Below are positions 15,737-44,534 of a stretch of 64,000 bases of DNA, piece after piece. Location of the stretch: contig CAZMGB010000003.1 in NCBI GenBank assembly GCA_964565775.1, forward strand, positions 139,957 through 203,956, written 5' to 3'. The translations under genes and the position numbers were made by a program. Every line of letters begins with the position of its first letter. Within the stretch, counting starts at the first letter, position 1. The DNA comes from an uncultured Dehalococcoidia bacterium. Its GTDB lineage: Bacteria; Chloroflexota; Dehalococcoidia; DSTF01; JALHUB01. The notes below the pieces were generated by a model that was not told the origin of the DNA, made no database searches, and saw only the letters and a program-made list of their open reading frames with translations.

Positions 15737-15860
15737 CTATTCGATGTAGCGGAGGCCGCCCGGTCTCTTCCTCACCAGCTCCTCCTCGCGGCGGGCAGAC
15801 GGCCAGTAGGCGCCGGCGCACGGACGCAGCTCCTCGGCAATGTTCCCATCAGTGCCGTCC
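15737..15860 (-). pseudogene. 3'-end relic of an AlkP paralog
   Basis: Reads DGTDGNIAEEL...REEELVRKRPGGLRYIE* versus EGTDGRVADEL...EEEERLVRERLRGLGYIE* of 17704..19275; no start codon, in-frame stop upstream. Confidence 0.75.
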
Positions 15861-16065
15861 AGCCAGTGCTGAAGGCACCAGATGCTGCGCTCACCGTGAA
15901 TTCATGTCGACTATTCCAGAGGAGCACAGGCCTCAGAAGACCGGAAGTCGCAGACCGGAGCGAGACGTCTGGGTGGCGGCCTCTAAAGCAGGCTATGGTA
16001 GACTTGATGTTAGAGCCCCCACAGGGAAAGGGGACGCGTCGCCGGATGGGAGTTGACCTAGAGAC

Positions 16066-17640: not shown

Positions 17641-17703
17641 GAGGGTCGTGCCCGGCGCCTCGCGGTCATCGCCCCGGCCGGCACTGCGACCAGGAGCCGG
17701 ATG

Positions 17704-29880: not shown

Positions 29881-31169
29881 TGACAAAGATCTTGATACTG
29901 AGCCGCGGCGTCGTTGGGCGGGGCATGGCCAGCCCCGGAATTCGCTGCTACCACATGGCCCGCGTCCTCGCCGAGCAGCTCCCGGAGGCACAGGTCACCC
30001 TCTCCATTCCCAACGAGCCGGAGATCCCCTCTCCACACCCACGCCTGCGCATCGTCCGCTACCGCAGCCAGTGGGCCAGCCTCCTGCAGATGCTCCGCCA
30101 CGATGTCATCATCTCCCGCAACTTCCCGCCCCACGTCATACCCGTCTTCCTCCACAAGCGGCTGGCCCTGGACTTCTTCACCGCCTTCTTCATCGAGTGG
30201 ATGGAGCTCTCCAAGCGTTTCCCCAGCCTCGCGCAGAGAAAGCTCTGGATGGCCTCGAACCGCCACTACAGCGATGTCCAACTGACGCTGGCCGACTACC
30301 TGTTCTGCTCCAACGAGCGTCAGCGCGACCTGTGGGTCGGCGCCCTGGCCGCTCTCGGCCTCATCACCCCCCGCATGTATGACGAGGACACCACCCTCCG
30401 CCGCCTCATCGATGTGGTGCCCTACGGCGTCCAGCCCGGCAGTCCCCAGCACGACCGGCAGGTCCTGAAGGGAATCGTGCCGGGCATCCGCGAGACCGAC
30501 AAGGTGCTCATCTGGAACGGTCTGCTCGTCGAGTGGTTCGACGCCAAGACCGTTGTCCGGGCCATGGCCGAGGTGAGCCGCGTCCGCGACGACGTCAAGC
30601 TGTTCTTCCTGGGCCTCCAGCACCCCGACTACGTTACGAGCGTGGAGGCGCAGCCGGTGCGCGAGGCTATGGACCTGTGCAAGGACCTCGGCGTCTACGA
30701 GCGGTCCGTGTTCTTCAACGTCGGCTGGACGCCCTACCACGACATCGGCAACTTCCTCGCCGAAGCCGATATCGGCGTCTGCGCCGGCTTCAACAACATC
30801 GAGGCGCGCTACGCCTTCCGCACCCGCTTCGTCGACCTCTTCTGGGCGGAGCTGCCCATCATCTGCACGAGCGGGGACGTCCTCGCCGAGCGGATCGAAC
30901 ACGAGCCACTCGGCATCTCCGTTCCGCCCGGCGACCACCAGGCGTTCGCCGACGCCATCCTCCGCCTCGTCAACGACCGCGACTTCTACCAGCGCTGCCG
31001 CTCCAACATGCCCGCCATCAAGGAGGAGCTGAGCTGGGAGCAAGTTCTCGCTCCCCTGGTAGAGTTCTGCCGCAGCGGCGAGAGCATCGCGGCTCCCAAG
31101 GGTCAGCGCTTCCTTCCCCTCCTTCTCCGCTCCGCGGCCTATCTGGTGGAGAAGACGCTGGCGCGCTGA
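29880..31169 (+). CDS. GT4-like glycosyltransferase (copy 3 of 3)
   Basis: Paralog sharing long identical DNA stretches with copy 2; TGATG overlap. Confidence 0.85.
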   Translation: MTKILILSRGVVGRGMASPGIRCYHMARVLAEQLPEAQVTLSIPNEPEIPSPHPRLRIVRYRSQWASLLQMLRHDVIISRNFPPHVIPVFLHKRLALDFFTAFFIEWMELSKRFPSLAQRKLWMASNRHYSDVQLTLADYLFCSNERQRDLWVGALAALGLITPRMYDEDTTLRRLIDVVPYGVQPGSPQHDRQVLKGIVPGIRETDKVLIWNGLLVEWFDAKTVVRAMAEVSRVRDDVKLFFLGLQHPDYVTSVEAQPVREAMDLCKDLGVYERSVFFNVGWTPYHDIGNFLAEADIGVCAGFNNIEARYAFRTRFVDLFWAELPIICTSGDVLAERIEHEPLGISVPPGDHQAFADAILRLVNDRDFYQRCRSNMPAIKEELSWEQVLAPLVEFCRSGESIAAPKGQRFLPLLLRSAAYLVEKTLAR

Positions 31170-31193
31170 GCGCAGCTAGCGCAAGGAGGCTCG

Positions 31194-31577
31194 ATGTATC
31201 TCCAGACCCTCGAAGAAAGCCCCCGCAACCGGCGCGGCGGTCAGGTCTCCTACCTCCTGCTGTCGAAGGGACAGTTCGGCTCCACGAACCTGGCGATAAC
31301 GTGGGTCGAGGGAGGACCCGACAGCGAACAGCCCCTTCACGATCACCCGCGGAACGAGCAGGTGTACGTTATCGTCAGGGGTCGCGGTGTGATGAAGGCC
31401 GGCGAGGAGGAGCAGGAGGTCAGGGCCGGTACAATGGTCCTCATTCCGCCGAGCACGAGCCACGCCATCCGGAACACCGGCGACGAGCCGCTTGTGTTCG
31501 TCTCGGCGACTGCGCCCCCATTCGATCTGCCGCCGGAGGGGTCAGCCTTCGCCTATGAGCCGCCAGCGCGAACCTAG
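31194..31577 (+). CDS. Cupin domain protein
   Basis: HDHPRNEQVYVIVRGRG and IPPSTSHAIRNTG motifs; AAGGAGG RBS. Confidence 0.85.
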   Translation: MYLQTLEESPRNRRGGQVSYLLLSKGQFGSTNLAITWVEGGPDSEQPLHDHPRNEQVYVIVRGRGVMKAGEEEQEVRAGTMVLIPPSTSHAIRNTGDEPLVFVSATAPPFDLPPEGSAFAYEPPART

Positions 31578-31617
31578 CGCCTGACGGTGCCGGGAAGTCT
31601 GGGCCCCGGCCCCGCCG

Positions 31618-32421
31618 CTATGTGCCGGCGAGGAACTCGTCTACCAGCCGGTTGAACGTATCCGGCCGCTCGAAGTAGACGGAGTGCCCGGCCTTGGGCA
31701 CGCGCTCCAGTCGCGCCCCGGGGACGAGTGAGGCGAAGACTTCGACTGCGGCCGGCGGCATCACGACATCCTCCTCGCCGGTGATACAGAGGACGGGCAT
31801 GGGTAGCGCCGCTACCTTCTCGGCGGGCGTCGTCCGCATCGCGATCAGGCCCCTGAGCACCGCATCCCGGTCCAGGTTCACGCTGAGCCCCGAGATCTCC
31901 TGGTAGAGGAAGTGCATTGCGGGCTGCTCACGCGCCATGCGCTCGCCGGCTGCGGGGTGGATGCCCCGCGCAAACAGCTCCGCCTCCGGGTTGCCGGTGC
32001 GCGCGGCGTAAATGCGGTCGATATCCGGATGGGCGAGGGTACCCGTGGTCGCCGCCATCACCAGCGCACGGACGCGCGACGGGCTGCCCGTCCGGCTGGC
32101 GGCCTCTCGCAACGCGTAGCCGAGGCAGGTCCAGCCGCCCATCGACTGCGCCACCAGCCGCACGTCCTCTAGCTCCAGGTGGTCGATGAGCGCCGCCAGG
32201 TCGTCGACGAAGGCCGCCGGGCCGGGGCCCTGCGCCTCCTCAACGGAAGGCGCGAAGCCTCGATGCGCGAAGGTGACACACGTATAGCGGTCGCGAAAGC
32301 AGGGGACCTGCTGCCACCAGGAGAGATGATTTCCACCCAGACCGTGCGCGAAGACCAGGGCCGGACCGTGGCCGCTCCTCTCGTAATAGAGGTCGCAGCC
32401 GTTGACGTGGAGAAATGGCAC
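31618..32421 (-). CDS. Alpha/beta hydrolase
   Basis: HGLGG, RGF, AQSMGG nucleophile elbow, GEED, GHSVYFE. Confidence 0.88.
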   Translation of the reverse strand: MPFLHVNGCDLYYERSGHGPALVFAHGLGGNHLSWWQQVPCFRDRYTCVTFAHRGFAPSVEEAQGPGPAAFVDDLAALIDHLELEDVRLVAQSMGGWTCLGYALREAASRTGSPSRVRALVMAATTGTLAHPDIDRIYAARTGNPEAELFARGIHPAAGERMAREQPAMHFLYQEISGLSVNLDRDAVLRGLIAMRTTPAEKVAALPMPVLCITGEEDVVMPPAAVEVFASLVPGARLERVPKAGHSVYFERPDTFNRLVDEFLAGT

Positions 32422-32458
32422 GACGACTACTCCTCGCAGGGCAATCGCATGCGCTGCC

Positions 32459-32530
32459 CTAGCCTCTATCCCACCTCACGTTGTACAGGCGCGCCGCGTC
32501 CTTGAAGGCGCGCGGCGCGACCGCGTCACG
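32459..32530 (-). pseudogene. Relic 1 of a class III nucleotide cyclase-like 3' end
   Basis: RDAVAPRAFKDAARLYNVRWDRG*. Confidence 0.6.
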
Positions 32531-32546
32531 CGGGCGGGCTGTCGGA

Positions 32547-33716
32547 TCATGTCGCCTTCTTGAAAGGAGTCTCAAGCAGGCGCTTTCGCACCCGCTCGTC
32601 AAGGGCGACGTCGATGGCTGTCCAGGCCATCGCCAGGGCACCGTCGATCACGGCCTTGTCGGCCTCGGCCGTGACGCAGTGGGCGGCGAACTCGGGCTGG
32701 TGGGGAAGCGCCGGCAGAGAGCCGATACCGATCATCGGGTGGATCGCCGGTATCACCAGGGAGACGTTGCCCATGTCCGTCGACCCCGCCCTCGACCCAG
32801 CGTCGACGAACGTGCGGCCGAGGGTCTCCGCGTTGGAGCGATAGGCCGCCGAAAGGTCGGGGTCGGCCTGCATCTGAGCGTACGGCCTGCCGCCCTCCCT
32901 GATCTCCAGCTTGGCGCCGGTGGCCACGGCCCCGGCCTCGAAGCAACGGTAGACCTTGGCGCGGAGCTCCTCCAGTCGCTCAAGCCTGCTCGCGCGGATC
33001 GCGTAGGTGGCGCTGGTGTGGGCCGGAATGACGTTGGGCGCGTCACCGCCCTTGGTGACAATGCCATGAATCTTGTCGTTGGGGCCGATCTGCTGTCGGA
33101 GGAGCCCGATGGCCACCTGTGCCAGAGTGAGGGCGTCGGCGGCGTTGATGCCGCGATCGGGGAATGAAGACGCGTGCGCCTCCTTGCCCGTGTATTCGAC
33201 ATCGAAGTCCTGAATGGCGATGATCGCCGGCTCCAGTATGTCGACAGGGGACGGATGCACCATCATAGCAGCGTGCACGCCGTCGAAGGCGCCGCGCTCC
33301 AGGAGAAGGATCTTGCCTCCGCCGCCTTCCTCGGCAGGCGTGCCGATGATGCGCACGGTGATTCCCAACTCATCCGCCACCGAGGCCAGGGCGATGGCCG
33401 CACCGACTGCGGCAGTAGCGATGATGTTGTGGCCGCAAGCGTGGCCGATCTCGGGGAGACAATCGTACTCGGCGCAGACGGCGACGTGCAGGGGGCCGCT
33501 GCCCGCCCGGCCGGCGAACGCCGTCGGCAGCTCGCATACGCCGCCCTCGACGGCCAGCCCTGCCTGAGTAAGGGTCTCGACCAGCCAGGCGGATGCCTTA
33601 TGCTCCTGGAACCCCAGCTCCGGGTTCGCGTGGATCCGGTGGCTGAGGTCGATGAGCGTGTCGCGGAACTCGTCCAGGCGTGCGCGTGCCTTAGCCTTCG
33701 TGTCTGTGCTAGCCAT
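32547..33716 (-). CDS. M20 family amidohydrolase (PM20D2/AbgB-like)
   Basis: HANPELGFQE, EYDCLPEIGHACGHN, GTPAEEGGGGK, GSTDMGNVS. Confidence 0.9.
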   Translation of the reverse strand: MASTDTKAKARARLDEFRDTLIDLSHRIHANPELGFQEHKASAWLVETLTQAGLAVEGGVCELPTAFAGRAGSGPLHVAVCAEYDCLPEIGHACGHNIIATAAVGAAIALASVADELGITVRIIGTPAEEGGGGKILLLERGAFDGVHAAMMVHPSPVDILEPAIIAIQDFDVEYTGKEAHASSFPDRGINAADALTLAQVAIGLLRQQIGPNDKIHGIVTKGGDAPNVIPAHTSATYAIRASRLERLEELRAKVYRCFEAGAVATGAKLEIREGGRPYAQMQADPDLSAAYRSNAETLGRTFVDAGSRAGSTDMGNVSLVIPAIHPMIGIGSLPALPHQPEFAAHCVTAEADKAVIDGALAMAWTAIDVALDERVRKRLLETPFKKAT

Positions 33717-33786
33717 GTGTCCTACCTCGTAAGGGCTTCGCTGCTCACCCCGTCGGCGGTCCCCGCGTACCGGATGTGGGGCTGCA

Positions 33787-33870
33787 TCATCCGCCTCCGG
33801 CGGACTGCCGCCGTCTCACCTCGTACAGCCGCACCCGGCCCTCGAACGCACGGTGCACAGCCTCGCCCCG
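33787..33870 (-). pseudogene. Relic 2 of a class III nucleotide cyclase-like 3' end
   Basis: RGEAVHRAFEGRVRLYEVRRRQSAGGG*, colinear with relic 1. Confidence 0.6.
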
Positions 33871-33878
33871 GCCGATTT

Positions 33879-34469
33879 CTAAGTGCGCCGTTGGAACAGG
33901 TACCAGTAGGAGGGGCTTCCTTGCTCCGCGCCGCCCCTAACCCACCGGGCCTCGAAGTCGCCAGCCAGCAAGCTCTTCATCTCATCCGGCGCCAGCCCCA
34001 CCGCACGTCCCAGGAACTTACGGGGCCCCCACGCGTAAAGCATGTAGTAGCCACCGGGGCGAACCAACCGCTTCAGCATCGAGCCGTAAGCCAGGCGGTC
34101 GGAGGACACCAGGGAGTGAAAGCAGCCGATATCCAGGGCCAGGTCAAAGGACTCGCCCACGAGCTGTCCGCCCGCCGCCCCCAGCTTTATGGCCTCGCCG
34201 GCATAGAAGGCGGCCACCACACCCGCCTCACGGGCCTTCTGCCGCGCCCTGCGGATGGCCAGCCAGGCGACGTCCGTCCCCACCACGTCGAAGCCATGTT
34301 GGGCCAGGTAGATGGCGTTGGTACCGGTGCCGCAGCCGATGTCGAGGGCTCGCCCCGGCGGGATGACGCCACTTTCTACCACCTCGACCACCTCCGGCGG
34401 CGTGATGCCGGTATCCCAGCGAGGCCGACCACGGAGATATTGCAGGTTCCAGAAGAGCTTGCTCAGCAT
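33879..34469 (-). CDS. SAM methyltransferase (TPMT/type 25-like)
   Basis: PRWDTG, ALDIGCGTG, DIGCFH. Confidence 0.85.
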   Translation of the reverse strand: MLSKLFWNLQYLRGRPRWDTGITPPEVVEVVESGVIPPGRALDIGCGTGTNAIYLAQHGFDVVGTDVAWLAIRRARQKAREAGVVAAFYAGEAIKLGAAGGQLVGESFDLALDIGCFHSLVSSDRLAYGSMLKRLVRPGGYYMLYAWGPRKFLGRAVGLAPDEMKSLLAGDFEARWVRGGAEQGSPSYWYLFQRRT

Positions 34470-34521
34470 GAATCGATCCCAGGCCCGTCCGGCCCGCAGC
34501 CGCGCTCGACGGGCGGCGGCA

Positions 34522-34578
34522 TCACCCGCCTCAGGCGCACTCCCGCGAGCTCACCTCATACGGCCGCAGCGGGCCCGC
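34522..34578 (-). pseudogene. Relic 3 of a class III nucleotide cyclase-like 3' end
   Basis: AGPLRPYEVSSRECA*GG*; the 61-nt stretch 34515-34575 has 12 mismatches against 33780-33840 (hand count). Confidence 0.55.
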
Positions 34579-34581
34579 CCG

Positions 34582-34878
34582 TCAGGACCGCCCGGCCCGT
34601 CCGCCGCCGGCGACGGCAGGGAAGACGTCCACCTCGTCGGCGGCGGTGACGCGGGTGTCCAGCCCGTTCAGGAAGTGAATCTCGCGCCCGTTCAGGAACA
34701 CGGCGACGTATCGACGCACCTCGCCGGAGTCATCGAGCAGGGAGCCGGCAAGGCCGGGGCGAAGCTTCTCGAGATGCCTCAGCATGTCGCCGACGGTGCC
34801 GGAGCGGGGGACGGCCACCTCGATCGCCTTGTCGCCGGCCCGTATCCGCAACATCGCGTAGAGCCTAACGAGCACCAT
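34582..34878 (-). CDS. MoaD/ThiS (SAMP-like) sulfur carrier with a C-terminal extension
   Basis: VRLYAMLR, TVGD, VFLNGREI, FPAVAGG then GRAGRS*. Confidence 0.85.
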   Translation of the reverse strand: MVLVRLYAMLRIRAGDKAIEVAVPRSGTVGDMLRHLEKLRPGLAGSLLDDSGEVRRYVAVFLNGREIHFLNGLDTRVTAADEVDVFPAVAGGGRAGRS

Positions 34879-34904
34879 CGTTCACCCGACGCGCGCCGCA
34901 AGGG

Positions 34905-36704
34905 TCAAATGATCTGCAGCGCTCGAAGCTTCTCCTCAGGCACGACGCCTTTGACCCAGCCGCGGGCGGCGTAGTACTCCTCGAGCATCAGATCCAGCTC
35001 GCATACCTGTCCCTGCGACCCGGGGCTGGTGGAAGGCTCCGTCAGGAACCGCTGCGGCAGCGTGTCGGAGCCCTCGCGGAAGCCGGCCAGGTTATTGTAG
35101 TGGCGCTCCAGATTGTAGACGCGCTCGCCGATCTTGAGGATCCCATCGCCGTCCATGGGCACTCCGACCACCGCCGAGTACTGCGCCGCGTAGTTGTCCG
35201 CGTTCTCGGCGAAGCTGGAGAACTTGCAGATGTCGAGGGAGTCGGACACGGCAGCGAGGTCCTGGAACGCCTTGAGGAGCTCTCCCTTGCCCTGCCAGGC
35301 CAGGGGGTCCACCTTCTCCGGTATGCCCATCGCCTCGGCGGCAAGAGTGTAGCCGCGCAGGTGACAGGCGCCCCGGTTGCTCGTGGCAAAGCCGAGCCCC
35401 ATGCCCTTCACGCCCCGCGGGTCATAGGCGGGGATCGCCTGGCCCTTGACGGTCATCGAAATGCTCTCATCGCCGAAGCCTCTGGCCGCGCGCTCCGTCC
35501 CCTCGGCGAGGGCGTCGCCGATCCCTTCGCGCAGGGCTATCTTGCGCACCAGTTCCACCATCTTGTCCGCATCGCCCCAGGCGATGCGCTCGCTGATGAG
35601 CTCCCTGTCGCTGGCCTCCATGGCCATCGAGAGGACGTTGCCCATCTCGATGGTGTCCATGCCGTATTCGTTGCACAGGTCGATGAGGAAGGCGATGGAA
35701 TCGCGGTCGGCGTTGAAACAGTTGGCGCCGAAGGTCCAGGCGGACTCGTACTCGTAGCTCTCCATGTGGACCTTGAACCTGCCGGGGCTGGTCTCGACCT
35801 CCTTCTTGCAGGCGACCGGGCAAGCGTGGCACGTCGGATCGTTGACCAGGATCGTCTCCTTGACGCGCTCGCCGCTTATCTCGTTCGCTTGCTCGAAGCT
35901 GGTGAGTTGCGAATTCTTGGTGGGCAGCGCCCCCATGGTGTTGGCGAGGTTCATCAACACGTTGGTGCCGAAGACGGAGAGGCCGCCCTTGCGAGGGCCG
36001 GTGACGTCGCTTTCCGAGAGGGCCTTCACCGCATCCCTGTGGGCCACCCGGAACGCATCCCGGTCCTGCGCCTTCGGCATCCGCTTCTTCGCCTTGATGA
36101 CGACGGCCTTCAGGTTCTTGCTCCCGGCCACCGCTCCCACGCCGCCGCGGCCGGAGGCGCGGTCGTTCTCGTTGATCAGGGAGGCGAAACGTACCTTGTT
36201 CTCCCCACCGCGGCCGATGGTCACCACGCTCACGTCGTCGCCGTGCCTGTCCAGGAGGAGCTTCACCGTCTCGTGCACGCCCTTGCCCCAGAGGTCTCGG
36301 GCATCCTTGACCTCGACGTTGCCGCCCTCGACGTAGGCGTAGACGGGGTGGTCGGCCCTCCCCTCGAAGATGACGCCGTCCAAGCCGGCCCACTTCAGGC
36401 GGGCGCCGGACCAGCCCCCGTGGTGGGAGTCGGTCACGGTGCCGGTGAGAGGCGACTTCGTGACGACAGCCACTCGGCCGCTCATGTTGACTGCGGTGCC
36501 CGTCAGGGGGCCCGTAATGAAGCAGAGGATGTTTTCCGGCGACAGCGGCTCCACCTGGGGGCCGTTGTCGAACACAAGCTTCACACCGAGGCCGCGACCA
36601 CCGATGTACTTGCGGGCATCTTCCTCGTTGATCTCTTCGTAGCGAACGTTGCCTTTGCCGAGGTCTACTCGCGCCAGACGATTGGCGTATCCGCCCAGTG
36701 GCAT
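34905..36704 (-). CDS. aor: Tungsten-dependent aldehyde:ferredoxin oxidoreductase family protein
   Basis: YIGGRGLG, KSPLTG, GRGGVGAVAGSKNLKA, CHACPVAC, EYES, GMDTI, RGACH, DSLDIC. Confidence 0.92.
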   Translation of the reverse strand: MPLGGYANRLARVDLGKGNVRYEEINEEDARKYIGGRGLGVKLVFDNGPQVEPLSPENILCFITGPLTGTAVNMSGRVAVVTKSPLTGTVTDSHHGGWSGARLKWAGLDGVIFEGRADHPVYAYVEGGNVEVKDARDLWGKGVHETVKLLLDRHGDDVSVVTIGRGGENKVRFASLINENDRASGRGGVGAVAGSKNLKAVVIKAKKRMPKAQDRDAFRVAHRDAVKALSESDVTGPRKGGLSVFGTNVLMNLANTMGALPTKNSQLTSFEQANEISGERVKETILVNDPTCHACPVACKKEVETSPGRFKVHMESYEYESAWTFGANCFNADRDSIAFLIDLCNEYGMDTIEMGNVLSMAMEASDRELISERIAWGDADKMVELVRKIALREGIGDALAEGTERAARGFGDESISMTVKGQAIPAYDPRGVKGMGLGFATSNRGACHLRGYTLAAEAMGIPEKVDPLAWQGKGELLKAFQDLAAVSDSLDICKFSSFAENADNYAAQYSAVVGVPMDGDGILKIGERVYNLERHYNNLAGFREGSDTLPQRFLTEPSTSPGSQGQVCELDLMLEEYYAARGWVKGVVPEEKLRALQII

Positions 36705-36882
36705 GGGTGTCCTCCCTTCCGTGAGTGCGCGACGTGCTGCCGCGGCTCACTATGGAACCTAAGATGTTCCGGCTCCCTCCCAGTCGTGGCCGCCTACATT
36801 CTTCCTCACGCCCGCGTTTTCCGCAAGAGGCGGCGCGCCGTTTCGGTCAGAGGCGAATCCCAGAATCGGTTAGCCGGGTATG

Positions 36883-36911
36883 TTGACAACGCGTCGGGCT
36901 ATGAGTAGTCT
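36883..36911 (+). promoter_or_regulatory. sigma70-type promoter
   Basis: TTGACA-17bp-TAGTCT. Confidence 0.6.
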
Positions 36912-36940
36912 GCTAGCGCGCGCACAACAAGCGGCCGGTC

Positions 36941-37333
36941 ATGAAAAACACACTATTCATGGCCGACCTTGCCGCTTCACTCCTCGCGGGCTTGGTAGCA
37001 CTCGCCGCGCTAGTATGGGCATCTCCATCCTCATCGAACGCGGCCGAGGAAGAAGTCACGGAGGCCCGGGTGTCACGATACGATGGACACGGTCACGAGT
37101 CCGCCGAGGCGGCTAGGGGAGCGGCCGTCGACGGGGCGGGCAACGTGTACATTCCAAACGGGAGCGAGTCGTCGGCGTGCCGTTACGACGGCCTTGACGG
37201 CACCAACGACTGTTGGCCGCCACCCGGGCACATGCTACGTGCGGCGGGCAAGGGCTGTCTACGAACCCGTTTACACCCAGGACATGGAATGGCTCGCATA
37301 AGGGGGTACTCGTACATGGCGAGAACGCGCTGA
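36941..37333 (+). pseudogene. Truncated secreted beta-propeller (SBBP-repeat-like) gene
   Basis: Signal-peptide-like N-terminus then one blade VSRYDG..ARGAAVDGAGNVYI; degenerate afterwards. Confidence 0.5.
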
Positions 37334-37397
37334 CATACGCAGCCCCGTTCACGGCTCGGGTAGATCCGGCAGAGCCGCCGAAGAAGGGAGGCCGACC

Positions 37398-38444
37398 ATG
37401 ACGGGAAACGAAAGCTCGCAGCGGCCGAAGACATGGGCGGAGGAGTTGAGGCGCCTCGGCGAGCGCCTCAACGAGCGCGTCAGGCAGAAGCTGCCGCAGA
37501 TGAACGTAGAGACCACGGCTCTGACACCGGGATGGGAGTGCAAAGAGAAGTGGCAGAAACTGCGCATCGAGCGGGATCGCATCCAACTCATGAAGGTGGA
37601 GCTCGGCTGGTTGTCGGTCGATGCCGCTGCCCGCGTCGACCGTCGCCTCAAAGCCGCAGGCGAAATCATCGATGCGGAAATCGAGGGCAAGACAAGCGAG
37701 GCCTTTCTCAAGCTATGTCAGGCCGAGCACATCATGCAGCGCGCCTGGTGGTCGCGCCACTGGAATAGCTGGCCGAGGGGTTGCTGCTTATGCTATCTCT
37801 GCCGCCTTCCGCTGTGGGTCTACCTATCGGCAATGCTCCTTGCGGCTCTCGGCGCGACGGCCTGGACCATTTTCGACCACGAGTTGTATCCCGGCGTCGA
37901 GGACATCGGGCGTCACGAGGCGCTGTTCGGCGCGACGCTCTGGGGCCTTGCTGGTGGCCTGGTGACCGCACTGCGAACCCTCCACCACCGTATCCAAGCC
38001 CAGCAATTCGAAAGGGAAAGGGTGGCCTGGTATGTGCTGAGCCCCATCCTTGGATTCGCCCTCGGCGCCAGCGCCTCACTGATCTTCTTCGCGGGACTCG
38101 TCAGCCTCGATCACGATCTGGGAGAGGCGGCGCCAGCGCCCCAAGCGACGAGCGAGATCGTCGCGACGCCAACGCCCCAAGCGACAAGTGAGATCGTTGC
38201 GACGCCAACGCTCACAGCGACGCCAACGCCCGCAGCGACGCCCGAGATCGTTGCGACGCCGACGCCCACAGCGACGCCGACGCCCCAACCGCCGGGGGAG
38301 ACGAAGAGGCCGATCGATCCTACCCCTATCTTCCTACTGGCGTTTCTGGCCGGTCTTGCCCAGAACGCCTTCTTCGGCTTCTTGCAGCAGACAGTGAAAG
38401 CCCGGTTCCGGGGAGCCGACGAGGAGGAGGAAACGGTACCCTAG
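37398..38444 (+). CDS. Uncharacterised 4-TM membrane protein with a Thr/Pro-rich loop
   Basis: GGAGG RBS; TMs with WGLAGG..AL, Y.LSPILG and AFLAG motifs. Confidence 0.7.
   Translation: MTGNESSQRPKTWAEELRRLGERLNERVRQKLPQMNVETTALTPGWECKEKWQKLRIERDRIQLMKVELGWLSVDAAARVDRRLKAAGEIIDAEIEGKTSEAFLKLCQAEHIMQRAWWSRHWNSWPRGCCLCYLCRLPLWVYLSAMLLAALGATAWTIFDHELYPGVEDIGRHEALFGATLWGLAGGLVTALRTLHHRIQAQQFERERVAWYVLSPILGFALGASASLIFFAGLVSLDHDLGEAAPAPQATSEIVATPTPQATSEIVATPTLTATPTPAATPEIVATPTPTATPTPQPPGETKRPIDPTPIFLLAFLAGLAQNAFFGFLQQTVKARFRGADEEEETVP
38139..38288 (+). repeat. Coding tandem repeats of 36 and 18 bp (PQATSEIVATPT / xTATPT)
   Basis: Three 36-bp units interspersed with two 18-bp units, read directly. 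Confidence 0.9.
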
Positions 38445-38452: not shown

Positions 38453-41400
38453 CTACCCGAAGTTGTGGGCCTCGGGCACTGACAGCGATTGGCCGCCCAC
38501 GGCTTCGTTCGTAGGCCCGTGGTTGCAGAAGTGCTCGTTCGCCTCGGGCGCGGCGAGTGAGGGCGGCATGCCGAGGGCCTGGAAGGCCTCGGCCAGCAGG
38601 TTTATCGTCCCGTCCCGCCGCTCGAGGCGGCCGCGCACGCGAACGAACGGCTCGGTTCGCACCAGCGTCCGGCAGCGGGCGTAGAGGTCCGGCCGGACGA
38701 CGACGTTCGCCATCCCGTACTCGTCCTCCAGGAGCAGGAAGACGAAGCCCTTGGCCGTCTCCGGTCGCTGCCGGCAGACCACCAGCCCCGCCAGGTCGAC
38801 CATCGACCCGTCGTCTATCTCCGACAAATGGGCGGTGACAGCGACGCCCTCACCCAGGTAGGGACGCAGGAACTGCACGGGGTGGTATGAGGGCGAGAGG
38901 CCGAGGACGGCGTAGTCGGCCTTGAGGCGCTCCCAGTCGGAAAAATCGGGCAACGCGATCTCGTCCTGGGCCGTGGGCAGGGGCAGGGGGAACTGAGGGC
39001 TGGGCGGGCGATATAGCAGGCCGAGCTGCCAGAGCAGCTCCCGCCGGTTCAATCCGAAGCCGTCGAAGGCGCCGGCCGGGATCAGGCTCTCGATGCCCTC
39101 TCGCTTCAGCGCCCCCTTCTCGTCGGAAAGCCCCAGCCGCCGCACCAAGTCGGTCAGCGACCGGTACTCGCCGTCTTTCGCCCGCTCCCGCTCGATGCGC
39201 AGGGCGGCGTCGGCGCCGACGTTCTTGGCGTAGGCAAAGCCGATGCGCAGCCCCTCGCGGCCCTCCGGCAGCAGCTCGACGCTGCACTTTGCGCGGCTCC
39301 GGTTAATGTCGGGCGGCAGCACCTCGATGCCGTGGCGCTTGGCGTCGTTGGTGAGCACGTGGGGCGGGTAGAAGCCCATCGGCTGAGCGTTGAAGAGGGC
39401 GGTGTAGAACTCGGTCGGGTAGTAGCGGCGCAGCCAGGCCGACTGGTAGGCGAGGATGGCGAAGGCGGCGGCGTGGCTCTTGGGGAAGCCGAAGGCGGAG
39501 AAGGCGAGGAGCTTATCGAAGATGGCGCGGGCCACCGGCTCCGGCACGCCCTTGCCGGCGGCACCCGCGCGGAACTCCTCCCAGAAGCCCGCCATGGCCG
39601 CGTGCGAGCGCTTGCGGCTCATGGCCCGTCGCAGCGCTTCCCCCCGGCCCGCCGAGAAACCGGCCAGGGCCATCGCCACCTCCAGCACCTGGTCCTGGAA
39701 GAGGACGACGCCCAGGGTGTCCTTCAGCACCGGCTCCAGCAGGGGGTGGTCGTAGACGGCGACGGGATCGCGCTCGTCGGGTGGCACGTCGGCCTGGTCC
39801 CGTTCGACCTGACGGCGGCGGACGTAGGGGTTAACGGCGCCCCCCACGATGGGCCCCGGCCGGATGATCGCCACCTGCACCGCCAGGTCCTCCAGGTTTC
39901 GGGGCTGCGTGCGCGGCAGCGTCTGCATCTGCGCCCGCGACTCGATCTGGAAGACGCCGACGGTGTCCGCCCGGCAGATGTCGTCGTAGACGGCGGCGTC
40001 ATCGTAGGGGATGCGGCTGAGGTCGACGGGCCGCTTGCCGTTCTCGACGATCAGCTCCAGGCATTCCTCCACGGCCGAGAGCATGCCCAGGGCGAGGAAG
40101 TCGACCTTGATGAAGCGGGCGTCGTCCACCGAGTCCTTGTCCCACTGGCAGATGTAGCGCCCTTCCCAGGCGGCGGGCTGCACCGGCACCAGGTCGACCA
40201 GCGGCTGGGAGGCGATGACCATGCCGCCCACGTGCTGCGAGACGTGTCGCGGCATCCCGGCGAGCTGCTCCGCCAGGTCGATGAGGTCACGCCAGAGGGG
40301 GGCGTCGACCCGGTCGCGGAACTCCGGCAGGAGCTCCATCTCCTCCCGCAGACGCCCGGCGCTGCCGCCCTCCGACCGCTTCGCCAGCTTGTCGAGCTCG
40401 GCATCCGGCAGCCCCAGCGCTTTGCCCACGTCGCGCACGGCCGAGCGGATCCTGTAGGTGGCGAAGGAAGCGACCAGGGCGGCGTGCTCATGGCCGTAGC
40501 GCTCGTAGACGCGGAGGATGAGCTCCTCGCGGATGTCGCGGGCGAAGTCGAGGTCGATGTCCGGCACCGAAGCCAGCTCCTCGTTCAGGAAGCGGCCCAG
40601 GAAGAGCTTGCTCTGCACCGGGTCGACGTGGGAGAGGCCGATGAGATAGCACACCAGGCTGCTCACCGACGAGCCGCGGCCCCGGCCCGGCGGCAGGTTG
40701 GCGAGGGCGCGGGCGCTGTCCCTGCCCCGCACCTCGGCCGCCACCTCCGTCGCCAGCTCCAGCAGGTCGCGGTAGACCAGGAAGAAGCCCGACAGCCCGT
40801 GGTGGCGGATCAGCCGTAGCTCCTCCTCCAGGCGTTCCTCCGCCTCCCGTCGCAGGCCCGGCTCCAGGGGGCCGTAGCGCTCCCCCAGCCGTCGACGGCA
40901 GAGACGCTCCAGCGCCTCGTCGGCCGACTCCCCTCGGTCGCCGGCGAAGTCGGGGAAGCGGTAGTCGAGGTCGCGGGTGAGGTCGAACTGGCAGCGCTCG
41001 GCGATGCGACGGCTGTTGGCGACGGCCTCCGGGTACTCTCGGAACAGCTCGGCCATCTCGTCCGGCGACTTGAGGTAGTACTCGGAGTTCTCCCGTCGCT
41101 CGCGGTGGCAGCCGTCGAGGGTGGCGCGGTGCTTGATGGCGACGAGCACGTCCTGGAGGCGGTGCCGCTCCCGCACGTGGTAGTGGACGTTGCCCGTGGC
41201 GACCGTGCCCACCCCCAGCGACGCCGCCAGCTCCGCCAGGCGCCGGTTGCGCTCGCGGTCGCCGTAGACCAGGTTGTTCTGCAGCTCGACGTAGAAGTTC
41301 TCCCGCCCGAACCAGCCGCGCAGCTCCTTCGCCCACGCCTCCGCCTCTCGATAGCGCCCCTCCGCTACCAGCCGCGCCAGCCGCGACCTGCGGCAGCCCG

Positions 41401-41890
41401 AGAGGCAGATCAGCCCGCCGGTGCCTGCCCTGAGCGCGCCGTCAGGCGCAGTCGAAGGGTGCTGCCCTGAGCCTGTCGAAGGGTGCTCCGCTAGCAGCGA
41501 CGGATCGACGGCGGGGTTCAGCCGGTCGTGGGTGTAGGCGTGAGTGATGAGGCGGCAGAGATTGCTGTAGCCCGCACGGTCGGCGGCGAGGAGGGTGAGG
41601 TGGTGGGCAGCCCTCACCCCCGGCCCCTCTCCCTCAGGGAGAGGGGTGGCCCTGAGCTTGGCGAAGGGTCGGGGTGAGGGCCCCAGGGTGAGCTCGGCGC
41701 CGGTGATGGGGCGGATGCCGTTGGCCTTGCAGAGCTGGGCGAACTCCATCGAGCCGTAGAGGCCGTCGTGGTCGGTGAGGGCGAGGGTATCGTAGCCGAG
41801 CTCGAGGGCGCGCATGACCAGCTCCTCGGGGGTGGAGGCGCCCTCGAGGAGGGACCAGCAGGAGTGCATGTGGAGCTCGGCGTAGGTCAT
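38453..41890 (-). CDS. dnaE2: Error-prone DNA polymerase III alpha
   Basis: YAELHMHS..S.LEG PHP domain, GRGS, PDIDLD, SQHVGG, QWDKD, GVFQIESRAQM, GFPKSHAAAF, NAQPMGFYPP, RQRP.TAKG. Confidence 0.95.
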   Translation of the reverse strand: MTYAELHMHSCWSLLEGASTPEELVMRALELGYDTLALTDHDGLYGSMEFAQLCKANGIRPITGAELTLGPSPRPFAKLRATPLPEGEGPGVRAAHHLTLLAADRAGYSNLCRLITHAYTHDRLNPAVDPSLLAEHPSTGSGQHPSTAPDGALRAGTGGLICLSGCRRSRLARLVAEGRYREAEAWAKELRGWFGRENFYVELQNNLVYGDRERNRRLAELAASLGVGTVATGNVHYHVRERHRLQDVLVAIKHRATLDGCHRERRENSEYYLKSPDEMAELFREYPEAVANSRRIAERCQFDLTRDLDYRFPDFAGDRGESADEALERLCRRRLGERYGPLEPGLRREAEERLEEELRLIRHHGLSGFFLVYRDLLELATEVAAEVRGRDSARALANLPPGRGRGSSVSSLVCYLIGLSHVDPVQSKLFLGRFLNEELASVPDIDLDFARDIREELILRVYERYGHEHAALVASFATYRIRSAVRDVGKALGLPDAELDKLAKRSEGGSAGRLREEMELLPEFRDRVDAPLWRDLIDLAEQLAGMPRHVSQHVGGMVIASQPLVDLVPVQPAAWEGRYICQWDKDSVDDARFIKVDFLALGMLSAVEECLELIVENGKRPVDLSRIPYDDAAVYDDICRADTVGVFQIESRAQMQTLPRTQPRNLEDLAVQVAIIRPGPIVGGAVNPYVRRRQVERDQADVPPDERDPVAVYDHPLLEPVLKDTLGVVLFQDQVLEVAMALAGFSAGRGEALRRAMSRKRSHAAMAGFWEEFRAGAAGKGVPEPVARAIFDKLLAFSAFGFPKSHAAAFAILAYQSAWLRRYYPTEFYTALFNAQPMGFYPPHVLTNDAKRHGIEVLPPDINRSRAKCSVELLPEGREGLRIGFAYAKNVGADAALRIERERAKDGEYRSLTDLVRRLGLSDEKGALKREGIESLIPAGAFDGFGLNRRELLWQLGLLYRPPSPQFPLPLPTAQDEIALPDFSDWERLKADYAVLGLSPSYHPVQFLRPYLGEGVAVTAHLSEIDDGSMVDLAGLVVCRQRPETAKGFVFLLLEDEYGMANVVVRPDLYARCRTLVRTEPFVRVRGRLERRDGTINLLAEAFQALGMPPSLAAPEANEHFCNHGPTNEAVGGQSLSVPEAHNFG
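41424..41483. repeat. In-frame 60-nt insertion of two tandem CCCTGAGC..GTCGAAGGG palindromic units
   Basis: Encodes PSTGSGQHPSTAPDGALRAG between LLAEH and TGGLICLSGC. Confidence 0.8.
41610..41681. repeat. In-frame 72-nt nested palindromic element
   Basis: 11-bp terminal IR GCCCTCACCCC/GGGGTGAGGGC, inner hairpin CCCCTCTCCCT-C-AGGGAGAGGGG and a nested CCCTGAGCTTGGCGAAGGG. Confidence 0.85.
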
Positions 41891-41934
41891 GTATAATCAG
41901 GCTTCAGATCGGATCCTCGAAAGGAGGCGTCAAG

Positions 41935-42201
41935 ATGCTCAAGGCCGAACAGGTGGATGAGTTCTCGCGTGAGCTGGCAGCGCTGAACGAGCTGGGTCAG
42001 GAAATAGCAAAGGTGAGTCAGGAGATAGCAAGACCCAGTGTGGATTTTGCAAGGGCTGGCTTGGAAGAAAAGCTGCGGGAGTACCTGGAACGTGCGAGAA
42101 AGCTGGCTGAGAAATTCGGCCCGGAGAGCTTCTCTGTTTCAGTCGGCTTCCCTCTCGGCGTGCAGGTGTCACTGACCTGGAGTTCGGAGGGTCGGTCATA
42201 A
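41935..42201 (+). CDS. Small hypothetical protein (helical N-terminus, beta-hairpin C-terminus)
   Basis: AAGGAGG RBS, TATAAT at 41892-41897, lower GC than the flanks. Confidence 0.65.
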   Translation: MLKAEQVDEFSRELAALNELGQEIAKVSQEIARPSVDFARAGLEEKLREYLERARKLAEKFGPESFSVSVGFPLGVQVSLTWSSEGRS

Positions 42202-42210
42202 GACGCTGCA

Positions 42211-42338
42211 TTAGTAGACCTGCTGGAACCATCTTCTCAAAGTCGAATCGCGACACACCGTCACCACCTGCCCGTCCTCCAGGGCGAGGCGCCAGTACAG
42301 GCGCGACACCGGTCGCTCCCGCCACACTCGCCGTCCAT
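42211..42338 (-). pseudogene. Duplicated, frameshifted 3' end of the DUF6504-like gene
   Basis: WRERPVSRLYWRLALEDGQVVTVCRDSTLRRWFQQVY* versus intact WRERPVSRLYWRLALEDGRVVTVHEDLVSGRWAKQSY*. Confidence 0.9.
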
Positions 42339-42341
42339 GTG

Positions 42342-42389
42342 TTGATACCATGAGCGATATCGTGTATACTGTTGTCGATACAGTTATAC
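42342..42389 (+). promoter_or_regulatory. TA promoter with an overlapping operator-like inverted repeat
   Basis: TTGATA-17bp-TATACT; imperfect IR GTATACTGT-N7-ACAGTTATAC over the -10. Confidence 0.65.
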
Positions 42390-42401
42390 GAGGAGAGCCT
42401 C

Positions 42402-42668
42402 ATGTCTGTCGTCAAGGTCTCCAAGAAAGGCTGGGTCGTAATTCCCAGAGACATCCGCCAACGTCACGGCATCCGGCCAGGTGACAGAGTCCACGTTATC
42501 GACTACGCCGGGCGCATCGCCATCATCCCTGCCTCCGATGACCCCATTGCGACCGGCAGGGGCATGCTCAAGGGAGGCCCTTCAATGACCAAGGCCCTGC
42601 TGGAAGAGCGGCGATGGGAGCTGGAGCGTGAGGAGCGTGACCTCCCGCCGCCACGTCCGAAGCCGTGA
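42402..42668 (+). CDS. AbrB/MazE/SpoVT-family antitoxin
   Basis: KVSKKGWVVIPRDIRQRHGIRPGDRV; GTGA overlap with the toxin gene. Confidence 0.9.
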   Translation: MSVVKVSKKGWVVIPRDIRQRHGIRPGDRVHVIDYAGRIAIIPASDDPIATGRGMLKGGPSMTKALLEERRWELEREERDLPPPRPKP

Positions 42669-43093
42669 GCAGCGACACACCCATCTTCGTCCTCGATAGC
42701 TTCGCGCTCCTCGCCTTCTTTCAGGACGAGCCGGCAGCAGATGAGGTGGAGAGCCTCCTGGGCCGTGCCCTCCGCGGTGAGGTGCGCCTGGCAATGACCG
42801 TCGCCAACCTGGGCGAGGTGGTCTACCGAACGATCCGCGAGCATGGATTCGAACGGGCACAGGAAGTCCTGGGGCATATCGAACAATACGACATCGACAT
42901 GGTGGACATAGACCACGAGCTGGCGCTGATGGCAGCATACGTGAAGGGGACACATCGCATCTCCTACGCCGACTGCCTGGCTACAGCCTTGGCGCAGCGA
43001 CTGGATGCGGCCGTCGTCACCGGCGACTACGACTTCGCCCGGGCGGAGGACGCCGTCCGCACCGAGTGGCTCTCCACGCGGGAGCCTCAATAA
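42665..43093 (+). CDS. vapC: VapC/PIN-domain toxin
   Basis: VLDSFALL, NLGEV, ISYADC, VVTGD.DF acidic PIN residues. Confidence 0.9.
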   Translation: MSSDTPIFVLDSFALLAFFQDEPAADEVESLLGRALRGEVRLAMTVANLGEVVYRTIREHGFERAQEVLGHIEQYDIDMVDIDHELALMAAYVKGTHRISYADCLATALAQRLDAAVVTGDYDFARAEDAVRTEWLSTREPQ

Positions 43094-43374
43094 CTCTGCT
43101 TCGCCCATCGACCGCTCACCAGATCCTCGTGCACCGTCACCACCCGCCCGTCCTCCAGAGCGAGGCGCCAGTACAGGCGCGAGACCGGCCGCTCCCGCCA
43201 CCACTCGTCGTCGATGCGCCAGACGTCCTGCACCTCAGCGACCCGCAAGCGCTCGCCTCGCAGCGTGACAGTGAGCGGCCTTCCCTCGGCGTCCGCCTCC
43301 ACGGCGACGGGCCGCGGCTCCCTCAGGGGTCGTAGTCGATGAGGGCGAGCCGGCGCTCGGGTATGCGTGACCAC
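43087..43374 (-). CDS. Small conserved protein of imuB-dnaE2 cassettes (DUF6504-like)
   Basis: PRPVAVE..GRP..V..DVWRIDDEWW..RLYW; GTG 43374 with GGAG RBS, overlapping the imuB 3' end. Confidence 0.7.
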   Translation of the reverse strand: MVTHTRAPARPHRLRPLREPRPVAVEADAEGRPLTVTLRGERLRVAEVQDVWRIDDEWWRERPVSRLYWRLALEDGRVVTVHEDLVSGRWAKQSY

Positions 43375-44534
43375 GGCTCCATCTCCACTACCTGATACAC
43401 GTGCGACTGCCCGAAGCGGGCGCGGAGCTGCCGCACCGCCTCCACGAGCTGCCGCCGCCGTCGCCCCTTCTCCGCGAAGAGGCCCGCCTGCTTCGCCACC
43501 TCCTGCGTGAGGCCGGAGAGCTCCAGCACCAGCTCCTCGACGGGGCCGGGCGGGGGCGTCGCCCGCAGGACCGACCTCACTATGAACAACATCTGCTCCC
43601 GGTCCGCCGTCGCCTCCCGGAAAGTCACGGCCCGCTCCCAGCTCCGGCCGTCGCTCAGGACGGCGCGCAGGTGCAGTCGCCGGGCCGCCCGCTGGCGCAA
43701 TCGCGGGTGCAGGCGCGAGAGAAGCTGCCGGCCGGCGACGACAAGGGCCTCGATGCTGACGAGCGGTGTCAGAAAGCCGATGCGCTCGCTCAGCACCTCC
43801 TCGGGCTGTCGCGGCCGCAGGGGCTCGCGGTCGATGCCGCGGGCCAGCTCCCACAGCCGCCTGCCCTCGCCGCCGAACTGGGCCTGCACCGGCCCCAGCG
43901 ACAGCGCCGCCAGGTCGGCCATCGTCCGCAGGGCGTACAGGTCGAGCCGCCGCAGCGTCTCGGACGACGCGGGCAGGAGGGAGACGTCGAGGGGCGCCAG
44001 GAACTTTCGCTCCTGGCCCAGGGGCACGGCCGTCACCTCACCCGGCGCGCTGACGGCGGCGGCCGCCCAGGCGGGGAACTTACCTTCGGCGATGCCGACG
44101 CTCGCCTCCAGGCCCACGCCGTCGCGCACGGCCTGCCTGCCGGACAGGCAGGCCCGCACCAGCGCCTCGCCCAGGGCCATCTCGTCCTCGTAGTGGCCCT
44201 GAAGGCCGTCGACGCCAACGTAGGCTACGCCGAGATCGCCCGCCTCGACGAGAGGGCTTATGCCGACGAGGGTGCGCAGGAAGGCCTCCGACGCTTCGTG
44301 ATAGCGGACGGGGTCGGGCGGCAGGAAGACGGCGTCGCGGCAGAGGCCGAGTGCCACGCGCACGGGCATGCCGACCTGCACGCCCTGAGCCTCCACCTCC
44401 GGCGAGCAGTCCAGCACCGCCTTCCGCCCGTCGGCCGCCTCACCAATGACCACCGCTCGCCCACGTGAGGCCCGGCCCGAAGCGAGCTCGACGGCGAGTG
44501 GGAAACGGGGGATGAAGACACAGGCGATGCGCAC
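43323..44534 (-). CDS. imuB: Catalytically inactive Y-family polymerase ImuB
   Basis: Y-pol fold motifs lacking the N-terminal catalytic Asp (IACVFIPRF), GVQVGMP, QAGLF clamp motif, PWSRIPERR tail; upstream of dnaE2. Confidence 0.85.
   Translation of the reverse strand: MRIACVFIPRFPLAVELASGRASRGRAVVIGEAADGRKAVLDCSPEVEAQGVQVGMPVRVALGLCRDAVFLPPDPVRYHEASEAFLRTLVGISPLVEAGDLGVAYVGVDGLQGHYEDEMALGEALVRACLSGRQAVRDGVGLEASVGIAEGKFPAWAAAAVSAPGEVTAVPLGQERKFLAPLDVSLLPASSETLRRLDLYALRTMADLAALSLGPVQAQFGGEGRRLWELARGIDREPLRPRQPEEVLSERIGFLTPLVSIEALVVAGRQLLSRLHPRLRQRAARRLHLRAVLSDGRSWERAVTFREATADREQMLFIVRSVLRATPPPGPVEELVLELSGLTQEVAKQAGLFAEKGRRRRQLVEAVRQLRARFGQSHVYQVVEMEPWSRIPERRLALIDYDP
44130..44154. repeat. In-frame palindrome inside imuB
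   Basis: GGCCTGCCTG-CCGGA-CAGGCAGGCC with perfect 10-bp arms; adds CLSGRQA. Confidence 0.75.

Follow-up and report, generated by a model that had tools for sequence, protein, structure and literature searches.

Tail and head relics of a hydrolase–cyclase gene family in the spacers of a co-oriented gene run from an uncultured Dehalococcoidia bacterium

Introduction

Why should three consecutive spacers in one run of unrelated, co-oriented genes each hold a decayed piece of the same gene? The question is raised by a 64,000-nucleotide stretch of DNA from an uncultured Dehalococcoidia bacterium (hereafter the window; GenBank assembly GCA_964565775.1, contig CAZMGB010000003.1, positions 139,957 to 203,956), in which genes for a ThiS/MoaD-like protein, a methyltransferase (MT), an M20-family peptidase and an alpha/beta hydrolase follow one another on the minus strand. 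An earlier, sequence-only reading had reported this order, which gene calls and Pfam matches now confirm, and had correctly read the peptide encoded by a startless fragment in each of the three spacers. It took the fragments for the end of a class III cyclase, and proposed that genes had been stacked through a recurrent ~70-bp junction, either with the 3' ends of an expanded cyclase family as recombination anchors or by integron-like accretion at an att-like site.

The explanation that we favour, at a probability of roughly 0.55, is that unrelated genes replaced the bodies of members of a tandem gene array, and that short end-pieces of those members survive as ordinary spacers carrying a ribosome-binding site (RBS), a start codon and a coupled upstream open reading frame (ORF). 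A literature search returned nothing on such relics or on the gene family in Dehalococcoidia.

Coordinates without a prefix are those of the window, whose array is read on the minus strand; relic coordinates were read off rulered sequence printouts. The genome of the window (3.12 Mb) is designated G000 and its contigs by C numbers; G numbers denote other genomes and L numbers individual loci. X denotes the LipJ-like family of genes that combine an alpha/beta hydrolase with a class III cyclase, the first codons of an X gene being its head and the last codons its tail.

Origin of the spacer sequences

Judged from sequence comparison, each of the three spacers (A, B and C; Table 1) preserves what is left of a junction at which the tail of one X gene met the head of the next in tandem, spacer C only perhaps with a head. 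Profiles built from nine intact tails and nine intact heads were searched with nhmmer against both strands of all 3.12 Mb. The tail profile ranked four true gene tails first, followed by spacer B, a divergent cyclase gene, spacer C and spacer A, with genome-wide E-values of 2.5e-8 for spacer B, 5.1e-4 for C and 0.27 for A (5e-10, 1e-5 and 0.0056, respectively, in the 64-kb search space). Weak on its own, the relic in spacer A is supported by its ungapped match to spacer B (54/69 nt, 78%), which runs on through the stop/start junction; the likeness of these two spacers reported earlier is therefore real, its extent differing from the 49/61 then given. All three spacers can be aligned with one another. 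An intact X–X junction at C8:84508-84612 matches spacer B with 84% identity across 105 nt, the head profile matched spacer B at E 1.3e-5 genome-wide, and tblastn matched tail relic B at 74% over 27 aa and tail relic C at 63% over 19 aa. Relics A and B and the intact C8 junction are mutually equidistant (54-56 of 69 positions), so that neither A nor B is a recent copy of the other. A closest relationship between A and B was accordingly rejected, both being equally close to the C8 junction.

Spacer B comprises a tail of 27 codons, a TGATG in which stop and start overlap, and 15 codons from the beginning of the following X gene. Its tail begins a few bases after the MT stop codon, out of frame with MT, the ATG of its head overlaps the TGA of the tail, and the head ORF stops 5 nt before the ATG of the M20 gene. 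Alignments revealed a more decayed version of the same tail–head arrangement in spacer A, where the ThiS/MoaD ORF upstream extends 6 codons beyond its Gly-Gly. In spacer C the tail is accompanied by no more than a possible head trace, a mini-ORF that ends 5 nt before the GTG of the hydrolase and gave no significant head-profile match, genome-wide or within 64 kb. The recurrent junction proposed earlier thus exists as a repeated element, but the unit then described was incomplete: it is the whole tail–head junction of two X genes, which indicates a former tandem array.

The cyclase identity proposed for the fragments proved sound: intact paralogues match the cyclase profile PF00211 as far as position 179 of 183, the tail is the closing stretch of this match, and the fragments are homologous to the last ~25 residues of the catalytic domain of intact members. 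At 16-27 codons, startless and out of frame with the upstream gene, the relics do not constitute a functional class III cyclase gene. All nine PF00211 matches in the genome fall outside the window, in agreement with the earlier statement that it contains no cyclase gene; the nearest (C3:133142-133621) lies ~6 kb before the window start. A dispersed repeat of the REP or MITE type was ruled out, as profile matches occur only at X gene ends or relics and no palindromic fold is present. An Rfam 15 scan of positions 31000-37500 returned only two chance-level matches (E 0.86 and 0.99).

Outside the three spacers, neither an X relic nor a promoter was found upstream of the aldehyde:ferredoxin oxidoreductase (AFOR) gene that heads the run, a by-eye resemblance at ~36790-36830 being unsupported by the profiles, and no profile-supported tail relic occurs downstream of the hydrolase gene. 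A scan of the spacers for consensus promoters and terminators yielded no terminator-like site and only generic promoter-like sites. The hydrolase of the run shares 23% identity with family X over 268 aa (E 0.03) and is distant kin only.

Family X and its tandem arrays

Intact X genes encode proteins of ~450 aa with an Abhydrolase_1 domain and a Guanylate_cyc domain (PF00211). Two examples (L001:3205-4557 and L002:3116-4465) show the LipJ-like fusion, with Protein Data Bank (PDB) matches for both halves; the best solved relatives of the cyclase half are Ma1120 (4wp3, E 3.5e-31) and LipJ (1ybt, E 1e-25). On the PDB match, we take family X to be comparable to LipJ. At the C8 junction the upstream X gene ends in GDAVLRGFEDPVRLYEVRWRESAGGG followed by a stop codon, and the next starts on an overlapping TGATG with MEPGIQYARTADGVSIAF. 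A stop/start overlap of the form T(G/A)ATG was present in eight of the nine family-gene junctions read in relatives, and the spacer of the sole non-overlapping junction contains a promoter-like box.

Counting intact against orphan pieces, the check suggested in the earlier reading, gave three intact X genes and one truncated copy in G000 against at least six orphan heads and at least four orphan tails. A scan of public genomes with an alignment of nine X proteins confirmed at least 589 relatives, of which 74 loci (1.03 Mb) were kept; by record titles, the relatives among the at least 589 matches listed are mostly metagenome-assembled genomes (MAGs) of Chloroflexota/Dehalococcoidia. X is found in most relatives, often in arrays of 2-4 genes, and the junction hits in a single genome number as many as ~20. 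In an alignment of 69 distinct intact X genes the ends are the most conserved parts, with codon identity somewhat above that of the middle. Special conservation of the ends at the DNA level was not found in these 69 genes, the excess in codon identity being only modest and similar to that of the rest of the cyclase domain.

Individual members of the family vary further. Two of four tandem X genes in G009 (L024, G009:C17:154000-164000) have a frameshift near the tail, caused by an extra base in CGCGGGCTTCGAGG; members of this array are therefore being inactivated in place. A paralogue in G000 (L003, G000:C30:13000-19410, at ~2462-3950) has an extra LuxR/GerE-type helix-turn-helix tail, read from its translation, which unites hydrolase, cyclase and DNA-binding domains in a single protein; its immediate upstream neighbour is a cyclase-only gene.

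The methyltransferase unit in a second genome

Relics also border an MT orthologue in G021, a genome of another family, at which 148/196 residues (75%) are identical to those of the window MT. The G021 gene is preceded by a 20-codon ORF whose end overlaps the MT start in ATGCTGA, the arrangement also seen in spacer A, and is followed, right after its stop codon, by a tail relic (RVLRNLEKPVWLCRARRSEDG, then stop), a TGATG and a head fused to a 352-aa non-X ORF that matches no Pfam family. Over the 60 nt upstream of MT, the two genomes agree ungapped at 38/60 positions; shuffled controls gave 17.4 ± 3.3, with none of 5000 reaching 38, and comparisons with six other MT orthologues gave 17-23. Global gapped identity of the G000 and G021 spacers was discarded as uninformative, shuffles equalling it at 0.63, and the ungapped test was used instead. 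Third positions at identical MT residues agree at 85/140, from which it follows that the relic drifts at roughly the synonymous rate.

The G021 array (L023, G021:C4:295000-301000, minus strand, ~2560-5600) contains relics in several consecutive spacers. It opens with a TAAGAT box and ATGGAGCCG, the first three head codons, fused to a 277-aa MT-like gene, and continues with a junction-like relic, a tyrosine phosphatase (Y_phosphatase3), a further relic, MT, and the tail relic with its head-fused ORF. The relics of this locus were recognized by eye and do not reach significance with the profiles. Only the MT unit is common to the relic-punctuated arrays of G000 and G021, whose neighbours differ.

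Elsewhere, the orthologues of the run occur without significant relics. Among 80 metagenome loci with MT orthologues (39-74% identity), no head or tail match stood beside MT at E ≤ 0.5; two weak profile matches both lie on the other strand, and the six closest loci were also read by eye. These relic-free loci indicate that MT entered an X array once. Relics were present in 0/6 AFOR–MoaD loci of relatives, in which the pair is kept and the downstream genes differ. Nine loci with M20 orthologues (L010-L017 and L019; 45-69% aa identity) have other neighbours and no significant relic, L011 showing one tail-like stretch by eye that is not significant with the profile. In the closest relative, G006, the M20 gene lies between a CoA-transferase and a DinB-family gene, and head relics seen by eye before it and before another hydrolase fall short of significance with the profiles. 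The genes around the spacers thus do not keep a conserved order across relatives, and the variable synteny expected earlier is borne out.

Contigs of related strains were drawn from four metagenome runs. In run X3, contigs with ~92% identity cover relic B, MT and head relic A, with tail relic A replaced by 16 other letters; related-strain contigs have indels at 34584, 34588 and 34596, and the 16-letter replacement spans 34538-34603. The C-terminus of the MoaD-like protein is unstable where it abuts tail relic A. Head relic B ceases to be homologous to intact heads at 33742, a position at which paralogue contigs diverge in each of the four runs, and contigs matching the 5' part of the hydrolase gene stop matching at 32436, 15 nt upstream of its start. 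No cassette-deleting joint between relics was seen in the four runs, a single joint from 33783 to 32470 being read as a paralogous junction.

Orphan heads and tails in the genome and its relatives

Orphan tails at the borders of unrelated, variable genes, as anticipated in the sequence-only reading, were found in G000 and in many relatives. The precise 5' breakpoint that they were expected to share was not: breakpoints vary. Heads span 13 to 42 residues, and on the 123-nt tail profile the matches of orphan tails start anywhere from position 24 to position 81.

In G000 the orphan heads lie on C18, C13 (two), C1 and C8 and in spacer B, and the orphan tails in the three spacers and on C1; genome-wide, the head profile ranks three intact heads ahead of the orphans (Table 1). 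The C1 locus reads, in order, head (a 32-codon ORF), isochorismatase-like ORF (named from sequence reading), tail relic and P-loop kinase. The order on C8 is a 13-codon head, a DSP-phosphatase gene, a cyclase domain of which the C-terminal half is present, and then an intact X gene. Downstream of the other G000 orphan heads lie a carboxylesterase, a ferredoxin-nitroreductase and a glycosidase-like gene, the last also named from sequence reading. Similar arrangements occur in G021 (L026), with head, SDR gene and tail followed by two X genes, and in G019 (L027), where a head fused in frame to an ABC ATPase is followed by a permease, a tail–head junction, a zinc-ribbon cyclase, a GYD gene, a tail and the P-loop kinase.

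The P-loop kinase served as an anchor for comparing an orthologous site in 12 loci (including L034, which is G000:C1:148000-158000, at 4299-5714, and L027, L036, L037 and L040). Directly upstream of it stands an intact X gene in G034; the site has a head relic in G028, a tail relic in G019 and G000, and three X-like hydrolase-only genes in G031, and neither X nor relic in 7/12 loci. These stages across genomes provide direct evidence for the dismantling of an X gene in place.

Within the 74 loci kept from public MAGs, 57/64 heads are attached to genes and seven are orphan, while 75/87 tails are attached (51 to full X genes, 24 to cyclase-only genes), eight are orphan and four partial (three of them at contig ends). 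Every orphan head or tail is co-oriented with the neighbouring X gene. The arrangements include X, foreign ORF and tail (L053, L056 and L071), head, foreign ORF and X (L055, L066 and L078), and head, foreign ORF and tail (L060). In L053 the orphan tail and the adjacent X gene both show the rare variant ELHW.

Expression signals

Head-relic ORFs stop at, or no more than 5 nt from, the downstream start in spacers A and B, at C13a, C13b and L026, and before MT in G021; in two cases the new gene continues the head in the same frame (the ABC ATPase and the 352-aa ORF). This is the geometry of a coupled upstream ORF, seen as an ATGCTGA overlap in spacer A and before the G021 MT and as a stop codon, 5 nt and an ATG in spacer B. 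From such geometry, the head-relic ORFs may confer termination-reinitiation coupling on the next gene.

Array-first and orphan heads have a TAGAAT-, TAGGAT- or TAAGAT-like box, separated from the ATG by ~9 nt that often read AGTCCCGCC, and lack a Shine-Dalgarno (SD) sequence (examples at L001:5582-5621, L004:4601-4640, L005:3004-3043 and L059:7902-7941). Boxes of this type in the absence of an SD suggest leaderless transcripts, and the boxes may accordingly be leaderless-mRNA promoters. TATACT boxes were also observed 6-7 nt before GTG starts in L015 and L016.

Genomic surroundings

Table 1. Genes, spacers and relics of the co-oriented run (window coordinates) and orphan heads elsewhere in G000 (contig coordinates).
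Feature	Position	Strand	Evidence or remark
AFOR, first gene of the co-oriented run	34905..36704	-	Pfam AFOR_N E 1e-75, AFOR_C E 4e-131
ThiS/MoaD-like small protein	34582..34878	-	Pfam ThiS E 1.3e-12
Spacer A	34470-34581		between ThiS/MoaD and MT
Tail relic A, decayed last ~16 codons of an X gene, RAGPLRPYEVSSRECA then stop	34531..34581	-	tail-profile match 34538-34573
Head relic A, 19-codon upstream ORF, MPPPVERGCGPDGPGIDSC then stop	34463..34522	-	TGA overlaps MT start (ATGCTGA)
SAM-dependent methyltransferase (MT), first 'cassette'	33879..34469	-	Pfam Methyltransf_25/11/12
Spacer B	33717-33878		between MT and M20
Tail relic B, last ~27 codons of an X gene, RGEAVHRAFEGRVRLYEVRRRQSAGGG then stop	33787..33875	-	tail-profile match 33803-33871
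Head relic B, 21-codon upstream ORF, MQPHIRYAGTADGVSSEALTR then stop	33722..33787	-	head-profile match 33739-33787
M20/M25/M40 peptidase-family gene, second 'cassette'	32547..33716	-	Pfam Peptidase_M20, M20_dimer
Spacer C	32422-32546		between M20 and hydrolase
Tail relic C, RDAVAPRAFKDAARLYNVRWDRG then stop	32459..32530	-	tail-profile match 32469-32522
Possible last head trace, 7-codon mini-ORF, MRLPCEE then stop	32427..32450	-	by eye only
Alpha/beta hydrolase, 267 aa, third 'cassette'	31618..32421	-	Pfam Abhydrolase_1 E 1.7e-26
Orphan head	C18:51600		E 6.5e-16
Orphan head	C13:11043		E 8e-16
Orphan head	C1:152298		E 4e-6
Orphan head	C8:85580		E 1.6e-5
Orphan head	C13:29394		E 6e-3

The array lies between two distinct gene neighbourhoods. 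The region 38453-44534 holds a MazE/PIN toxin-antitoxin pair between a DnaE-type polymerase (1145 aa) and a Y-family ImuB-like gene (IMS), next to an Ogt-type methyltransferase and a sigma factor, and a second, DinB-like Y-family polymerase is encoded at 53229-54314; together these regions are a damage-tolerance neighbourhood a few kb from the array. On the other side, PMT_2 glycosyltransferases and a radical SAM/SPASM gene are interspersed among three paralogous type I phosphodiesterase/nucleotide pyrophosphatase genes at 2409-19275, and glycosyltransferase and sugar-nucleotide genes continue from there to 31169, so that the region from 2409 to 31169 looks like a cell-envelope glycan island.

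Discussion

The observations to be accounted for are the homology of the spacers to X gene ends, their tail-then-head order, its recurrence, the age of the MT unit and the lack of a recombinase or attC-like structure. The tail-then-head order cannot come from internal deletion of a single inserted X gene. If the bodies of array members were replaced, as we favour, the starting state would be a tandem X array in which the stop codon of one gene overlaps the next start (TGATG) and the last tail codons would serve as the SD of the next gene. The interior of each member would then have been lost to an unrelated enzyme gene (MT, M20 or a different hydrolase), leaving of each member its first 7-21 codons and its last 16-27, so that the spacer reads tail, then head. 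Insertion or replacement may have proceeded by illegitimate or homology-assisted recombination into a redundant and tolerant target, and later deletion would have pared the dead X pieces to normal spacer length. The pieces kept would be those with expression signals, namely an SD, a start codon and a short upstream ORF at the start of the new gene and, at array starts, a leaderless-type promoter with its ATG.

Several points weigh against body replacement. The window and G021 arrays look oddly regular: with relics in several consecutive spacers, independent random strikes on every member seem unlikely, unless X arrays are a strongly preferred target. Public cases of the type X, foreign ORF, tail have no clear head relic (3/3) and those of the type head, foreign ORF, X no tail relic (3/3), and such one-ended cases fit the duplication of one gene end at least as well. 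Relic lengths cluster, with heads of at most 42 of 450 residues and most tail relics starting in the last 40-80 nt, so that erosion must be invoked. Some relics were seen by eye and are insignificant with the profiles (the two heads in G006, the one ahead of the tyrosine phosphatase in G021 and the tail in L011). Finally, open frames of ~20 codons come cheaply in 65% GC DNA, and the upstream-ORF coupling is drawn from geometry only.

A less probable but still serious alternative is that cassettes accrete and are exchanged without an integrase, the tail–head junction (~130-200 nt) acting as portable homology for RecA-type recombination. A gene between two junction copies would loop out as a circle and could then insert at any X–X junction, whether in its own cell or, once transferred, in another; each entry would duplicate the junction and so build arrays of unrelated genes separated by junction copies. 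Exchange would suit the contrast in content between G000 (MoaD, MT, M20 and hydrolase) and G021 (277-aa MT-like gene, tyrosine phosphatase, MT and 352-aa ORF), whose arrays share only MT, and the single-end duplications that flank inserts beside intact X genes (L053, L056 and L071; L055, L066 and L078). The abundance of X and its junctions in relatives, the conservation of the gene ends and the single entry of MT into an X array deduced from its relic-free orthologues are likewise in keeping with it. The relics themselves bear no mark of a recent event, the A, B and C8 junctions being equidistant and the relics roughly as diverged as synonymous sites. Between G000 and G021, MT identity (75%) is like that of AFOR (73%), and vertical descent therefore fits. 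No cassette-deleting joint was seen in the four metagenome runs, and RecA would act poorly on relics only 45-80 nt long with ~80% identity. Even under exchange, the first relic-flanked cassette still requires an illegitimate event. The age and decay of the relics, together with the lack of a recent event, speak against exchange being active at present.

In its most far-reaching form, this idea would make the conserved X stop/start junction an integrase-free cassette site, and the X family a chromosomal platform that captures genes to much the same effect as an integron. We regard that as doubtful, and equally so the corollary that each arriving gene would bring a ready-made RBS, start codon and coupled leader ORF. 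Were the junction truly a recombination anchor, it would represent a new, recombinase-independent route of gene capture.

Erosion alone, in which unrelated genes had always been interspersed among X genes and X was deleted from one side with nothing inserted, is improbable. Interspersed arrays do exist, with other ORFs between X genes in L059 and L060, and a single deletion would explain both the order head, foreign gene, X and the order X, foreign gene, tail without any insertion. The window spacers, by contrast, keep a tail and then a head, so that erosion needs two X genes per spacer and two junction-sparing deletions, repeated in A, B and G021. The P-loop kinase locus, moreover, has head, foreign gene and tail in order at one X position.

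Site-specific, integron-like capture, in which the tail or junction would be an att site for a recombinase encoded elsewhere, is largely refuted: single co-oriented genes, each followed by a related element of ~70-130 nt, give it a superficial likeness, yet the 49 ORFs scanned against Pfam, out of 51 called in the window, include no recombinase or transposase, the five PF00589 tyrosine-recombinase matches in the genome (C11, C16, C26 and C3:30130) lie on other contigs or ~140 kb away, the three spacers, folded as single-strand DNA for either strand, are unexceptional (z -1.19 to +0.07 against 200 shuffles), no spacer contains a long inverted repeat or an Rfam match, and the element is coding sequence of the X family with breakpoints that differ from case to case. 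The earlier suggestion of accretion at an att-like site is therefore abandoned, there being no recombinase near the array, no attC-like fold and no constant breakpoint.

Replacement of X gene bodies, our preferred explanation, would offer a tangible, datable picture of gene turnover in the compact genomes of uncultured Dehalococcoidia. Redundant tandem paralogues would be places where new enzyme genes settle, and their dead ends would be recycled as spacers with translation signals. For annotation, the relics account for short conserved 'ORFs' and for odd N-terminal extensions, such as those of the ABC ATPase and of the 352-aa ORF, both of which begin with the MEPRIQYA-type head of family X, and the head and tail profiles can serve as a probe for recently remodelled loci.

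Comparison with known systems

Family X shares with LipJ (Rv1900c) of M. tuberculosis and Ma1120 of M. avium an alpha/beta hydrolase followed by a class III cyclase domain. It differs from both in being hugely expanded and tandemly arrayed in Dehalococcoidia/Chloroflexota MAGs (at least 589 relatives), and one copy in G000 has the additional LuxR-type tail.

Integron cassette arrays (IntI, attI and attC) resemble the present arrays in their co-oriented, mostly single-gene and unrelated units, their related short elements and their variable content among relatives. Unlike integrons, the arrays described here have no integrase, no imperfect-palindrome element and no precise boundaries, and their element is the end of one X gene and the start of another.

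Orphan modules of Rhs and contact-dependent inhibition (CDI) toxins, and the duplicated 3' ends of tRNA genes at genomic islands, are cases in which a short piece of a conserved gene is kept or duplicated beside incoming DNA and may provide homology for later exchange. The X relics involve neither toxin/immunity logic nor a precise, integrase-made repeat, and the pieces are the extreme ends of a signalling-enzyme gene.

Ordinary gene remnants, or pseudogene scars, are matched in that the pieces are startless, colinear and decaying, have intact paralogues elsewhere, drift at about the synonymous rate and in one case have been lost in a related strain. In contrast to such scars, both ends of X recur here as tail–head pairs in consecutive spacers, framing different unrelated genes, and the pattern is common to two genomes of different families and to public MAGs.

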